64,000 nt of DNA from Promethearchaeota archaeon (GCA_019058445.1 JAHPZA010000010.1:288001-352000); one strand, 5' to 3'; numbered from the stretch's first letter, positions 2,736-11,107 are shown. Notes: a model not told the origin generated them from the sequence alone. A program made the numbers and translations.

Positions 2736-3149
2736 ATGAATTGGAGAATTAAAACAATGGAGAAAAGCTTTTCAATTTCTAAAAAAATAACAAAAGAAGA
2801 TATCCAGAAGTTTATTGAAATTAGTGGTGATGACAATCCTGTTCATACAGATGAAAATTTTGCTAAGAGAACAATTTTTAGAAAACCTATAGCACACGGC
2901 TTAATTTCTGCTTCTTTAATATCCTGTGGTTTAACTAAACTTATGGGAGAAGGAAATATTTGGCTCACTCAAGATTTAAAATTTGAAAAACCAGTATATA
3001 TAGGTGATGAGATAACAGCAAATCTGAAAATTGTAAACATTGATTCGAATAAAGTATATAAAATTGAAACTACTTTGACAAACCAAAACGGAAAAGTTGT
3101 TATTAGCGGTTTTGCTGAATGCAAACTTTTCCCCGTTAAAAAGACTTAA
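2736..3149 (+). CDS. MaoC/PhaJ-family (R)-specific enoyl hydratase/dehydratase (true start may be the second Met)
   Basis: Hydratase motif SGDDNPVH...IAHG and hot-dog fold motif FEKPVYIGD. Confidence 0.9.
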   Translation: MNWRIKTMEKSFSISKKITKEDIQKFIEISGDDNPVHTDENFAKRTIFRKPIAHGLISASLISCGLTKLMGEGNIWLTQDLKFEKPVYIGDEITANLKIVNIDSNKVYKIETTLTNQNGKVVISGFAECKLFPVKKT

Positions 3150-3179
3150 TTTGTTAGTTTAATTATAAAAATTGAAGAA

Positions 3180-3989
3180 TTGATGCAAAATATTAAATTA
3201 CCTTATTATCTTTCTTTCGATAAATTGCTATACTCAACAAACCTATATGGTTATGAATATAATTTTTATACTGCTATGATAAGCAATAACTTCATTTTAA
3301 TTGGTCATAGCTCAAAAAACCCTAAAAAAGGAAATAGGCAGAAAGCAATCAATAAAATATTAAAAAGTAGGTTAATTTGGAATAAATCTGAATTAAAAGC
3401 TCTCAATTTAATCTTAGGGGAGAAGCAATTATATAAAATTACCGAATGGATTTTAACTAGAATATTATTAAAGTTAGGATTAATTTTATTCTGGAAGGAA
3501 TGCGATACTAATATAAAATGTTCCATAAAAGAGATCTCACTAGAGAAAAATCACTTGAATAAGCCAAATATTAAAATTATTTCAAATAACAATACTTTAT
3601 CAAACCATAAATCTTTCGTATCAATTTCACACTCTAAAAAAGAAGTTTTTGTAGCTCTATGCAATAATCCCATTGGAATTGATACTGAACTAATAGATAA
3701 TCATTCGGAATCCTGGGAAAACAAAATCGTTTCAGAACTAGAAATTATAAATCTAAGTTATTTGCTAAAAAAATGCTGTGATTTATCGAAAGAAACAATA
3801 CTTACGATCATATGGGCTCTAAAAGAATCAACATTAAAGATCCAAGATGAGATTTCAATAGGTTCTTTACCAGAAATAGTTATTAGTATAGATAATAATA
3901 GAATAATAACTAGAGCTCCCACAAACAATAGAATCTATTATAACTATATTTCATTTAATAATGATTCTGTCTTAGTACTAACGATTTAA
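3180..3989 (+). CDS. 4'-phosphopantetheinyl transferase (Sfp-like)
   Basis: SISHS, IGIDTE and WALKES PPTase motifs. Confidence 0.85.
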   Translation: MMQNIKLPYYLSFDKLLYSTNLYGYEYNFYTAMISNNFILIGHSSKNPKKGNRQKAINKILKSRLIWNKSELKALNLILGEKQLYKITEWILTRILLKLGLILFWKECDTNIKCSIKEISLEKNHLNKPNIKIISNNNTLSNHKSFVSISHSKKEVFVALCNNPIGIDTELIDNHSESWENKIVSELEIINLSYLLKKCCDLSKETILTIIWALKESTLKIQDEISIGSLPEIVISIDNNRIITRAPTNNRIYYNYISFNNDSVLVLTI

Positions 3990-4004
3990 AGATTCTAATT
4001 AAAT

Positions 4005-5291
4005 TTACCTTCCAATATAGACTGTAACCCAGTTAACTAATCTTGACAAGAATAGCATTCCATCCCATGGGGAATCAAATAAATGCATTTGTCCCAGATT
4101 TACACACCGAGATACTCCCCGCATTGTAACTTGATTCGCGAAATCAAGTAATTTAGATTTGTTTTCTATAGCGCAACCTATAGTTTGGACTTTTTTAGTA
4201 ATTAAAGGGATAAGTTGCTGTATGGAATCTATCTGCTTAATAAATATTGTTCTAGATTCAACAGGTTCCTCTAATGTCAAATCATTATTTATTAAAATTG
4301 TCCAATCATTTTCCCAAGGACAAATTACCGATTTTGAGGGACTCAGAGCGTAATCTGCTCTTACATTTATGATTTTTGTGGTTATATATTGATCAATCTC
4401 GGTTTTAGGATATCTTCTTGCTGCTTTTTTGAATTCTTCAGCTATGATTTGCGCTATTTCGTTTAAAGATTTGTTACTTCTTTCAAAAAATACAGTATGT
4501 GGTGATGTGCATGCTGCTTGATCGAATAAAAGTATATTGTTAATTAGAAAACGGATCTGTCTTGCAAAACTATCTAATTGAATTGCCTCAGTATCAAACA
4601 CAGAAAAGGAATATTTAGGTCCAAAAATAATATCTTCGCAATGTGTTCTTTTAGGTAACCCGGTTATTGCATTAACTGCCTCTTCACCTCCCCACACAAT
4701 TCTTGCATCGGCAATCTCAGAGAGCTCCAGATTAGCTTTATTATTGGTTCTCTCATAGTAGATAATACCCACCGATTTCAGAAGTTCTAACCCGGTAAGT
4801 CCTGTTTCAGTTTTGGTATTTGAAAAAACCTTTAACAACTTTATTATTGCTTCATGGCTATTCGGGGGAATTCTTAAGATATTTGCATTTCCAACAAATA
4901 AAGACTGTAATAATGAAAATAATCCTAAAGTGGGTACATTGCCAGCAATCCAATGACATGCTATACCACGTGGTTGGGCTTTAATACGCTTTTTATCTCC
5001 AACAAAGTTTTCCAAATATTCAAGATTGAAAAAATTTTTCTCAACTATTTGCATAAAATTACTTCGTCTTAACCAGGCTGACAGAAAAATTGCTCCTTCT
5101 AATCGATTAACTTCTCTATTTTTTCTAAGATTCTCGCTATACCCTTGAAAAAGGTCAATGATATCACTTTTCTCAACCTTATTTAAATTTAAAAAGCCTT
5201 CTTGTATTGTGTTTAATAGCGGTCTAATAGAAGCCACTTTTTTACATTGAGGATAATAAAATTCTCCTCCAAACATGGCTAAATCGATCAT
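4005..5291 (-). CDS. luxC: LuxC-family acyl-CoA/acyl-protein reductase
   Basis: PRGIACHWIAGNVP, WGGEEAV, FGPKYS, catalytic DQAACTSP, SPWDG. Confidence 0.9.
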   Translation of the reverse strand: MIDLAMFGGEFYYPQCKKVASIRPLLNTIQEGFLNLNKVEKSDIIDLFQGYSENLRKNREVNRLEGAIFLSAWLRRSNFMQIVEKNFFNLEYLENFVGDKKRIKAQPRGIACHWIAGNVPTLGLFSLLQSLFVGNANILRIPPNSHEAIIKLLKVFSNTKTETGLTGLELLKSVGIIYYERTNNKANLELSEIADARIVWGGEEAVNAITGLPKRTHCEDIIFGPKYSFSVFDTEAIQLDSFARQIRFLINNILLFDQAACTSPHTVFFERSNKSLNEIAQIIAEEFKKAARRYPKTEIDQYITTKIINVRADYALSPSKSVICPWENDWTILINNDLTLEEPVESRTIFIKQIDSIQQLIPLITKKVQTIGCAIENKSKLLDFANQVTMRGVSRCVNLGQMHLFDSPWDGMLFLSRLVNWVTVYIGR

Positions 5292-9251: not shown

Positions 9252-9443
9252 ATTAAATATATTAAATCAAAAGTTTTAAAAATTATTAATTCAATATTAG
9301 CTTTCTAATGAGGCTTTGAATTTGGTATCTTCTACTTATTGAATGGAAACCATACTGGCGTGAAAAAAAAAAAGTTTTTTTTATTTAATAGTATAATGTA
9401 AATTAATATAATTCATATTAATTCTAAAAAGGATGTACATTCT

Positions 9444-10091
9444 ATGAAAGTTTTAGCTATTGGCGTTCATCCTGATGATATTGAATTCGGAATGGGTGCG
9501 ACACTTGCAAAACATATACGTCTTGGTCATGAGATCTCAGTTGTGGTTTTAACTGATGGAAAAAGAGATGAGGTTGGAAGATATACTAAATCTCTTGATA
9601 GAAGAGAAGAATCGATTAGAGCATTAAAGATTTTAGGATACAATGACGAGATTAATTTCCTTAATCTCGCTAAAGTAAGTGTTTCCCAGTCTACGATTCA
9701 TGTGATAGAAAAAATAATTAATAAATTCAAACCAAATAGAATTTATACTCATTCTAGGAATGATCGACATCAAGATCACAGAAAATGTAGCTATGCTGTC
9801 TTAAGTGCTGGACGATATATAAGTGAAATACTTCTGTATGAAATATATTCTTCATTACCTGAATTTGTGCCAAATTATTTAATTTGCTTTTCAAAAGAAT
9901 TATTAGATTTAAAAATACAAGCCAATTCTGAATTTAAAAGTCAATTTCAAAATATGGATTTAATTGCTAAAATGATTGAAGGAATGGCAATTAAGAATAG
10001 CTTTATCACATATGCCACTCAGAGACAGGAAATCCAATATACTGAAGCTTTTGAGATAGCAAAAATCGTGAAGCAAAATAATGAAATTTAA
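9444..10091 (+). CDS. PIG-L/LmbE-family de-N-acetylase
   Basis: GVHPDDIE and HQDH metal motifs; C-terminal EAF. Confidence 0.9.
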   Translation: MKVLAIGVHPDDIEFGMGATLAKHIRLGHEISVVVLTDGKRDEVGRYTKSLDRREESIRALKILGYNDEINFLNLAKVSVSQSTIHVIEKIINKFKPNRIYTHSRNDRHQDHRKCSYAVLSAGRYISEILLYEIYSSLPEFVPNYLICFSKELLDLKIQANSEFKSQFQNMDLIAKMIEGMAIKNSFITYATQRQEIQYTEAFEIAKIVKQNNEI

Positions 10092-10111
10092 ACCAGGAGG
10101 TTATTAATAAG

Positions 10112-11107
10112 ATGGCTAATTGGATTTTGAGAAAATTTATTGAAAAAGATTTTGAACAACTCTTAGAATGGAGAAAAGTAGTTGCTAGAAGAGATAAAAC
10201 TCCAGAGTATATTGATTGGGAGTATAAAAATGGTCCTTGGGGTCCTGCTGAGACATGGGTGGCAGATGATAATGGCAAACTTGTGGGACAATATTCTACT
10301 CAAAGATATGAAGCTTTTTATTTTGGTGAAAAGATGAAAGCTTCACAGAGTTTTGATACAGGAGCTCATCCAGAATATTTCCATCCTAAAAATAATATCT
10401 TTCAAGCACTTGGAAATAAATTTTTTGAAGAAGAAGCAAAACAAAATATCCATTTCTCAACAGGTTTTCCAAATCAATATTTTTTATTTGGTGGTCTAAG
10501 ATTTGGCTGGAAAATTGTTTGTTCAATTCCTTTATTAGAACATCATAATGTTAACCAATTAGCGATCAAAGAAAGTTCTCGATATAATATAATCCAAATT
10601 CATGAGTTTGATAATGAATTTAAATATTTTAGTGAAAATTTTAAGGACGAGATACCGATATATTTAAACAGAACTCAGAAATATTTAAATTGGCGATTTA
10701 GAGATAAACCAAATTTAGTAAATCCAAAACATCATTATGATTATTTAAAATACAAAATTCTGGATAAAACGGGTGAATTAGTCTCATATATAGTTACTAA
10801 ATATTACCCCTCAGATCAAGGAATGATTCTTCAGCTAATGGATTTTCTCATTCCTCACGAAGAAGAGATATATCAATCTATAATCGCTTTTTTGGTAAAA
10901 GAAGCTAAGAAGAAAAATATTAACAGTATTTCTTTATTTGTAAATCGATTTAATCATTTTAGTGAATTTTTAAAAAATCTCGGATTCAATTTTCCTAAAA
11001 CTAAACGTAAATTTATTGCTAGAAACAATACTAATGTGCTTGATGACAAAGATTTATTTGATGACAAAAATCATTTTATCACTATGGGAGACCATGATGT
11101 TTATTAA
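10112..11107 (+). CDS. GNAT-family N-acyltransferase (two GNAT-like halves)
   Basis: WEYKNGP, LVGQY, DTGAHPEY, GFPN, YLNWRF; AGGAGG about 10 nt upstream. Confidence 0.75.
   Translation: MANWILRKFIEKDFEQLLEWRKVVARRDKTPEYIDWEYKNGPWGPAETWVADDNGKLVGQYSTQRYEAFYFGEKMKASQSFDTGAHPEYFHPKNNIFQALGNKFFEEEAKQNIHFSTGFPNQYFLFGGLRFGWKIVCSIPLLEHHNVNQLAIKESSRYNIIQIHEFDNEFKYFSENFKDEIPIYLNRTQKYLNWRFRDKPNLVNPKHHYDYLKYKILDKTGELVSYIVTKYYPSDQGMILQLMDFLIPHEEEIYQSIIAFLVKEAKKKNINSISLFVNRFNHFSEFLKNLGFNFPKTKRKFIARNNTNVLDDKDLFDDKNHFITMGDHDVY

Follow-up and report, generated by a model that had tools for sequence, protein, structure and literature searches.

A probable archaeal counterpart of the Vibrio cholerae O1 acyl-tailoring cassette in a surface-glycan island of an Asgard archaeon

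A 64-kb stretch of DNA from a Promethearchaeota archaeon (GCA_019058445.1, JAHPZA010000010.1:288001-352000), hereafter the window, carries a compact cassette for an acyl carrier protein (ACP), a 4'-phosphopantetheinyl transferase (PPTase), an adenylating ligase, an iron alcohol dehydrogenase (Fe-ADH, or ADH) fused to a LuxE domain, a LuxC-family reductase and a MaoC-type hydratase. Judged by gene content and order, this cassette is probably an archaeal copy of the carrier-protein acyl-tailoring cassette of bacterial glycan loci, of the wbeK-L-M-N(-O) type found in Vibrio cholerae O1, and we consider it rather likely that it makes a short hydroxyacyl-ACP as the donor for N-acylation of an amino sugar in a surface glycan. 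The gene order and the kind of cassette are known; new are the archaeal host, the variant in which the dehydrogenase is fused to LuxE, and the separability of the neighbouring PIG-L and GNAT genes.

Genes were called from a table of open reading frames (ORFs) and from Pfam profiles, and are listed with their positions in the window in Table 1. An earlier note, made by a reader of the sequence alone, had named these genes and described them as a tightly coupled operon with convergent and divergent neighbours, and the ORF table, the Pfam matches and the gene junctions all agreed with that description. Reading of the sequence showed that the ACP and ligase genes overlap by 4 nt (ATGA), that the ligase and fusion genes are separated by a single nucleotide (TAA-T-ATG) and that the fusion and LuxC genes abut with no gap (TAAATG). 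This minus-strand operon converges with the MaoC and PPTase genes and diverges from the PIG-L gene across a 192-bp spacer. A Pfam scan of roughly 50 ORFs, those up to position 60651, found no luxAB, luxD or ketosynthase gene in the window, as the earlier note had stated. The scanned ORFs around the cassette include many GT4 genes, GT2, GT9, DegT, WbqC, a flippase, sulfotransferases, TagF-like genes, a phosphonate pathway and an ABC exporter, and the window's gene content thus upheld the description of a non-luminescent ACP/PPTase/ligase/LuxE/LuxC/Fe-ADH module inside a surface-glycan island.

Table 1. Cassette genes, adjoining genes and the junction repeat (positions within the 64-kb window)
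Feature	Positions	Strand	Length	Support or remark
MaoC-type (R)-hydratase/dehydratase	2736-3149	+	137 aa	Pfam MaoC_dehydratas, 78 bits
Divergent Sfp-type PPTase	3180-3989	+	269 aa	ACPS, 21.4 bits
LuxC-family acyl-thioester reductase (predicted acyl to aldehyde)	4005-5291	-	428 aa	Pfam LuxC, 246 bits
Fe-ADH::LuxE fusion	5292-7496	-	734 aa	105 + 197 bits
ANL-superfamily adenylating ligase	7498-9009	-	503 aa	Pfam AMP-binding, 228 bits, plus AMP-binding_C
ACP	9006-9251	-	81 aa	PP-binding, 22.8 bits
PIG-L de-N-acetylase	9444-10091	+		Pfam and NCBIfam BshB1-like, 87 bits
Double GNAT acyltransferase	10112-11107	+		Pfam
Long-range inverted repeat	6163-6189 / 6390-6416	-	27-nt arms	arms about 200 nt apart; brackets codons 361-445 at the ADH::LuxE junction

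As had been supposed, the host belongs to the Asgard archaea. Its assembly (4.6 Mb in 10 contigs, GC content 0.31, 92.6% completeness) encodes ribosomal protein S8e, which among the control genomes only the archaeal ones have, together with six genes of the Actin family, with scores as high as 441 bits; two of the six lie on the window's contig and flank the window on both sides. Orthologues from the same genus carry the NCBI name 'Candidatus Hermodarchaeota archaeon', and every named LuxC relative with at least about 44% identity is from an Asgard archaeon, among them Prometheoarchaeum syntrophicum (67%) and Lokiarchaeum ossiferum (64%) as well as Sigyn-, Hel-, Hod-, Sif- and Thorarchaeia; Clostridium LuxC proteins come next, at 41-44%. 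The S8e gene, the actins and the sources of the LuxC relatives therefore assign the contig to the Asgard archaea. A search of the host genome for rRNA found nothing, and tRNA scans were nearly empty.

Nearly all archaea are said to lack carrier-protein chemistry. The ACP of the cassette fits the usual picture of a small, acidic carrier of some 80 residues that has a conserved serine, and its PP-binding score exceeds the cut-off of 20.8 bits. Its attachment motif is atypical, with W-x-S instead of D-S-L; the serine in question, Ser38, is the predicted phosphopantetheine site and is invariant in nine orthologues within the motif W-x-S-[IV]-[ST]-H-M. The PPTase scores below the Pfam cut-off of 25 bits for ACPS. 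We nevertheless kept the call, because an alignment of nine orthologues shows no variation in SISHS, GIDxE and WxxKExxxK and the orthologue profile matches solved PPTases (AcpS, Sfp and AASDHPPT structures, E 7e-9 to 4e-7). The protein also shows the features of the Sfp type, namely GxD..E, WxxKE(S/A)xxK and a two-domain polypeptide of about 230-270 aa. Across the whole genome, PP-binding, ACPS and LuxC gave one match each, all from the cassette, in line with the idea of a dedicated carrier pair that had been put forward earlier. A genome search with PF00109 gave no real ketosynthase (FabB/F/H) of a fatty acid synthase (FAS) of type II, only 20-22-bit partial matches in ORFs of some 430 aa whose products are probably thiolases. 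With the only ACP, PPTase and LuxC of the genome and no real ketosynthase, the module is self-contained and not attached to a fatty acid synthase.

The catalytic residues that we examined, in LuxC, LuxE, Fe-ADH, MaoC, PPTase and ACP, are all intact. Aligned to the LuxC chain of the fatty acid reductase structure (7xc6_A), the window LuxC keeps the catalytic cysteine ('fdqaCts' versus 'yDQqaCfs'), reported as Cys296 (PMC9157457), although the overall match is weak (60 bits, E 2e-15). Against the NCBIfam lux equivalogs, LuxC scores 112 bits versus a cut-off of 750 and LuxE 62 versus 550. In the fusion protein, Pfam Fe-ADH and ADH_Fe_C cover residues 18-287, making the N-terminal part an iron alcohol dehydrogenase whose GGG motif and Asp/His/His/His metal ligands align to AdhE structures, and LuxE covers residues 367-728, making the C-terminal part an acyl-protein synthetase that ends in ...TRGCGD, to be compared with the LuxE motif TRxxKGCxLS and its acylated Cys364. 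The host genome has a second LuxE/PaaK-like gene (67 bits) at another site (G000:C4:335487-338689), about 2 kb from a fragment of an LbH-type acyltransferase. MaoC carries the hydratase-2 motif F-x2-I-S-G-D-x-N-P-V-H-x5-A, with Asp32 and His37 invariant in eight orthologues, and its gene stands directly upstream of the ACP gene in five related loci. The ligase scores best in NCBIfam against TIGR03098, an exosortase-A/EPS-associated acyl-CoA ligase (337 bits, short of the cut-off), also matches long-chain-fatty-acid-CoA ligase subfamilies (332 bits, below their cut-offs), and counts oxalate-, malonate- and succinylbenzoate-CoA ligases among its best relatives in the PDB. Its predicted reaction leads from the acid through acyl-AMP to acyl-S-ACP, or else to acyl-CoA.

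The closest known parallel in gene content and order is found in V. cholerae O1, where the consecutive genes VC0248-VC0251 encode an ACP (wbeK), a ligase (wbeL), an Fe-ADH (wbeM) and a LuxE/LuxC protein (wbeN). The functions of these 'tetronate' genes (VC0248-VC0252, wbeK-wbeO, also rfbK-O) were assigned by homology. The acyl group of the O1 antigen is 3-deoxy-L-glycero-tetronate (2,4-dihydroxybutanoyl), for which synthesis by these genes and transfer to perosamine have been proposed; RfbL/WbeL is the ligase proposed to load 2,4-dihydroxybutanoate on CoA or on the carrier protein RfbK, and wbeL, wbeM and wbeN mutants lose the O1 antigen or resist O1-specific phage. We take WbeO to be a hexapeptide-type (LbH) acyltransferase. 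The window cassette shares with this system the order ACP-ligase-Fe-ADH-LuxE-LuxC and the site in a surface-glycan locus. It differs in the fusion boundary, with ADH::LuxE plus a free LuxC in the window and a free ADH plus LuxE::LuxC in V. cholerae, in having MaoC and an in-cluster PPTase in addition, in lacking an LbH transferase, and in its archaeal host.

Related sets of ACP, ligase, LuxE and LuxC have been described in the flagellin glycosylation islands of Aeromonas group II and Enterobacteriaceae as 'fatty-acid-synthesis-like' genes (ACP, a FabG-like short-chain dehydrogenase/reductase (SDR), AMP ligase, LuxE and LuxC), and we found another in an exopolysaccharide locus on a plasmid of Deinococcus sp. 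NW-56, with the order ACP-SDR-ligase-LuxE-LuxC-acetyltransferase and identities to the window proteins of 37% (LuxE), 34% (ligase), 34% (ACP) and 22% (LuxC). Unlike the window cassette, the Aeromonas, enterobacterial and Deinococcus sets have an SDR in place of the Fe-ADH and neither MaoC nor PPTase, and their hosts are bacteria with a FAS ACP and an AcpS of their own. With LuxCDE fatty acid reductase (7xc6) the module has in common the LuxC fold with its catalytic cysteine and the C-terminal cysteine motif of LuxE, and presumably the mechanism, from acyl-AMP to acyl-S-LuxE, acyl-S-LuxC and aldehyde. In contrast to LuxCDE, it has no LuxD or LuxAB among the scanned window ORFs, stays well short of the cut-offs for the lux equivalogs, includes an ACP, a ligase and an alcohol dehydrogenase to which LuxE and LuxC are coupled, and probably acts on a short substrate. 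The earlier note had placed the novelty in the architecture and the host; for the architecture this does not hold, since V. cholerae O1 has the same components in the same order and Deinococcus a related set. It had also allowed for a bacterial contig with a gene order already characterised; the order is indeed known and genetically implicated, whereas the host is not bacterial and the chemistry is a prediction.

The cassette is conserved in other Asgard lineages. Using the fusion protein as query, we searched 400 genomes of the phylum, taking as true orthologues those with E < 1e-100 over the LuxE part, and found cassette orthologues in about 11 of them, from at least five families; four more genomes carry fragments on short contigs, and the remaining matches were generic Fe-ADH paralogues. 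The order (MaoC)-ACP-ligase-ADH-LuxE-LuxC is kept in the nine related loci that we fetched, at 40-79% identity, and the genes are co-conserved; with the order shared by nine further genomes of the phylum, the cassette is not a chance assembly. A PPTase, of either of two sequence types, adjoins the cassette in 10 of 11 loci. Beside the related cassettes stands a hexapeptide (LbH) acyltransferase of the NeuD/PglB/VioB kind (seven of nine loci), and DegT, a PglF-like dehydratase, DUF354, a WecA-like transferase and alpha/beta hydrolases recur as neighbours. Such neighbours are what one would expect of a pathway to a diamino sugar that receives one of its N-acyl groups from ACP instead of acetyl-CoA. 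The other Asgard copies thus have the same genes in the same order, with LuxC 44-84% identical and the PPTase adjacent, but encode ADH and LuxE separately and mostly have an adjacent LbH gene, while the host genus has the fusion and no LbH. Within that genus, congener G172 keeps the fused gene, LuxC and PPTase at 73% identity, which indicates purifying selection.

LuxC homologues are annotated in both cultured Asgards, Prometheoarchaeum syntrophicum and Lokiarchaeum ossiferum. A FastTree phylogeny of the best 120 of 346 LuxC matches, together with 16 LuxE::LuxC fusion tails, grouped the sequences into Loki (36 rows, the window and both cultured species among them), Hel/Hod (14), Thor/Sif (14) and Clostridium (32) clades. 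Its backbone is unresolved, so that the tree neither shows nor rejects a single Asgard origin and points to no donor; the clades themselves fit a long residence with frequent loss. GC content is uninformative as a sign of transfer (0.32-0.34 in the cassette genes, about 0.31 in the genome and about 0.27 in the island), and a search around the cassette for direct or inverted repeats, as expected at the ends of a mobile insertion, returned AT-rich chance matches only.

The fusion of ADH to LuxE is rare. A set of 5.8 billion proteins held four such proteins, from the host (G000), from G172 and from two metagenomes, and the fusion is confined to the host's genus; in all nine non-congeneric Asgard loci ADH and LuxE are separate, overlapping genes. 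The fused junction is 2 nt longer than in the unfused orthologues, merging the overlapping frames. A search of genome contigs with the fusion protein gave one weak Flavobacteriaceae LuxE-like match. Other fusions in the protein database join LuxE to LuxC (many cases) or LuxE to the ligase, and this variety (ADH::LuxE, LuxE::LuxC, LuxE::ligase) argues that the enzymes are functionally tied together.

The PIG-L and GNAT genes next to the cassette, which lie within the stretch that the earlier note described, turned out not to belong to the module. The pair occurs in eight other Asgard genomes, none of which has a cassette orthologue in the fusion-protein scan, and in the seven GNAT loci that we fetched the GNAT gene adjoins PIG-L every time with no cassette genes in the flanks; conversely, the cassette-bearing genomes have no GNAT of the window type. 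The two genes form a separate module. In congener G170 the order CotH...PIG-L-GNAT is kept, and a GT4 gene and an NDP-sugar dehydratase gene fill the cassette's slot. The different filling of the slot in G170 and the independence of PIG-L/GNAT suggest that the slot is variable and the cassette an exchangeable insert in it. The PIG-L/GNAT pair resembles the MshB/MshD and BshB logic, in which a GlcNAc derivative is deacetylated and then re-acylated; for the double GNAT we found no PDB relative by sequence and no NCBIfam match.

We propose the following scheme for the cassette, in which the predicted chemistry, likewise a prediction in bacteria, would run from acid to aldehyde to alcohol. The Sfp-type PPTase would convert apo-ACP to holo-ACP, and the ANL ligase would adenylate a small acid and load it on the ACP, a C4 dicarboxylate or hydroxy-acid being the probable substrate. 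The LuxE domain would activate a free carboxylate and hand it over through its C-terminal cysteine to the LuxC cysteine, LuxC would reduce the acyl group to the aldehyde with NAD(P)H, and the fused Fe-ADH domain would turn the aldehyde into a hydroxyl. MaoC may add or remove a 3-hydroxyl on the thioester, setting the 3-hydroxyl versus the enoyl state, and the resulting short hydroxyacyl-ACP would donate its acyl group to an amino sugar of the surface glycan through a transferase. Gene content and order, intact catalytic residues, co-conservation, the setting in a glycan locus and the single ACP and PPTase of the genome are observed; which acid is used, how long its chain is, in what order the steps occur and which acceptor receives the group are predictions.

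Several observations weigh against this scheme. No Hexapep/LbH acyltransferase is present among the scanned window ORFs, the best LbH paralogues of the host genome are only 32-34% identical and located elsewhere, and the adjacent GNAT belongs to an independent module. One LbH paralogue lies 21 kb upstream of the window (contig C10:266782-267258). The best family matches of the ligase include long-chain acyl-CoA ligases, so that the chain may be longer than proposed. For all members of this kind of cassette the chemistry is predicted, the V. cholerae pathway resting on homology and mutant phenotypes, and our comparison with V. cholerae was made by gene content and order.

The long-chain matches of the ligase, together with the reduction of myristate by canonical LuxC and LuxE, would also suit a fatty acid reductase that turns imported fatty acids into aldehydes and, through Fe-ADH, into fatty alcohols for lipids, wax-like compounds or lipid anchors. 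However, the very low lux equivalog scores, the failure to find LuxD (among the scanned window ORFs), a ketosynthase or a FAS, the site in a glycan island and the C4 acyl group made by the V. cholerae relative make such a reductase improbable, as do relatives that travel with sugar N-acyltransferase, aminotransferase and dehydratase genes. It is likewise improbable that the aldehyde is the true product, destined for C-C extension or transamination, with Fe-ADH only buffering or recycling it or acting on another substrate. Bacterial relatives do pair LuxE/LuxC with transketolase halves, for example at a Rhizobium plasmid locus, but no transketolase or NeuB-like gene adjoins the window cassette, and a dehydrogenase that is fused to LuxE in the host genus and is its immediate overlapping neighbour in the other nine Asgard loci argues for channelling from aldehyde to alcohol.

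The acyl-ACP could instead feed a small secondary metabolite or a lipopeptide-like product, its position in the glycan island being incidental. Bacterial sets of ACP, ligase and PPTase are typical of natural-product clusters, and several relatives have an alpha/beta hydrolase gene in the cassette's vicinity. No condensation, ketosynthase or nonribosomal peptide synthetase domain is found nearby, however, and across lineages the cassette is linked to the LbH sugar acyltransferase, DegT, Polysacc_synt_2 and Glycos_transf_4, so we regard this as very improbable. We give hardly any credence to an inactive remnant of horizontal transfer that lost its acyltransferase and has no output; the missing LbH gene and the variable CotH-to-PIG-L slot would agree with it, but the six ORFs are intact and tightly coupled with their catalytic residues kept, and G172 has retained the fused gene, LuxC and PPTase. 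The donor role in N-acylation of a glycan amino sugar is the reading that we prefer to these four.

The fused gene contains an inverted repeat at the ADH::LuxE junction (Table 1). The junction arm is an inverted copy, 23-27 nt long in the two fused genes, of a conserved segment about 200 nt downstream, and the unfused orthologues do not have it. The repeat is kept in the 73%-identical congener (L003 1798-1820 / 2029-2051), with one compensatory pair between the two fused genes, an A-U to G-C change made through two synonymous substitutions. In both genes the junction helix closes the minimum-free-energy fold of the mRNA (z = -6.9 and -5.0, computed from the two DNA sequences). The repeat may be a scar of the fusion event, left by an inverted duplication and the 2-nt frame merge, or a regulatory RNA helix.

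The suggestion that the cassette bears on the lipid divide proved weak and was not sustained, as there is no FAS ketosynthase and the context and the relatives point to a short acyl decoration of sugars; the cassette has no bearing on membrane-lipid evolution. Other Asgard genes bear more on acyl-lipid questions. ACPS matches occur in 128 of the 400 genomes of the phylum, many of them inside open frames of about 3,200-3,800 aa, and the giant frame that we examined (L078:2-9472, at G135:C1:866001-875472) reads ketosynthase (KS)-acyltransferase (AT)-(KS-like)-ACPx3-ketoreductase (KR)-dehydratase (DH)-PPTase, resembling PfaA/polyunsaturated fatty acid (PUFA) synthases or type I polyketide synthases (PKS). 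Such PPTase-bearing frames are near-universal in some families (28 of 31 genomes in f13, 11 of 12 in f18 and 10 of 12 in f15); the host genome has no PKS/PUFA-synthase-like giant frame. Surveys of biosynthetic gene clusters are said to mention Asgard PKS genes.

The host genome has exactly one ACP and one PPTase, both apparently dedicated to a glycan-tailoring cassette, and the LuxC homologues in both cultured strains make the chemistry testable and may explain an unassigned N-glycan sugar. The N-glycans of P. syntrophicum start with a 304.127-Da residue that has been tentatively read as HexNAc+Thr. We calculate C12H20N2O7 and 304.1271 Da for a residue of acetamido-(dihydroxybutanoyl)amino-dideoxyhexose, the same formula as that of the HexNAc+Thr reading; the match concerns another species and is consistent with the cassette's product without being evidence for it. 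We put forward as a speculative and rather unlikely proposal that the cassette is an old, largely vertical Asgard trait that makes the C4 dihydroxyacyl group of the 304.127-Da sugar that joins the N-glycans of P. syntrophicum to protein. If true, this would be the first ACP-dependent archaeal pathway with a defined product, and it would at the same time resolve how the cholera-type cassette works, a pathway so far postulated on sequence grounds for the O1 antigen of V. cholerae, which serves as a vaccine target and as a phage receptor.

Elsewhere in the window, where the glycan island has its edge, a gene for a VTC-domain protein (164-904, minus strand) adjoins that for a CotH kinase-like protein (1190-2473); the CotH gene is syntenic in congener G170. 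Three island ORFs of 666, 219 and 186 aa, within 19772-21772 and 43615-44975, have no Pfam match. Between 39183 and 53406, three TagF-like CDP-glycerol glycerophosphotransferase genes surround a set for a PEP mutase, a phosphonopyruvate decarboxylase-like protein, an aminotransferase and a cytidylyltransferase, which together make up the phosphonate pathway.

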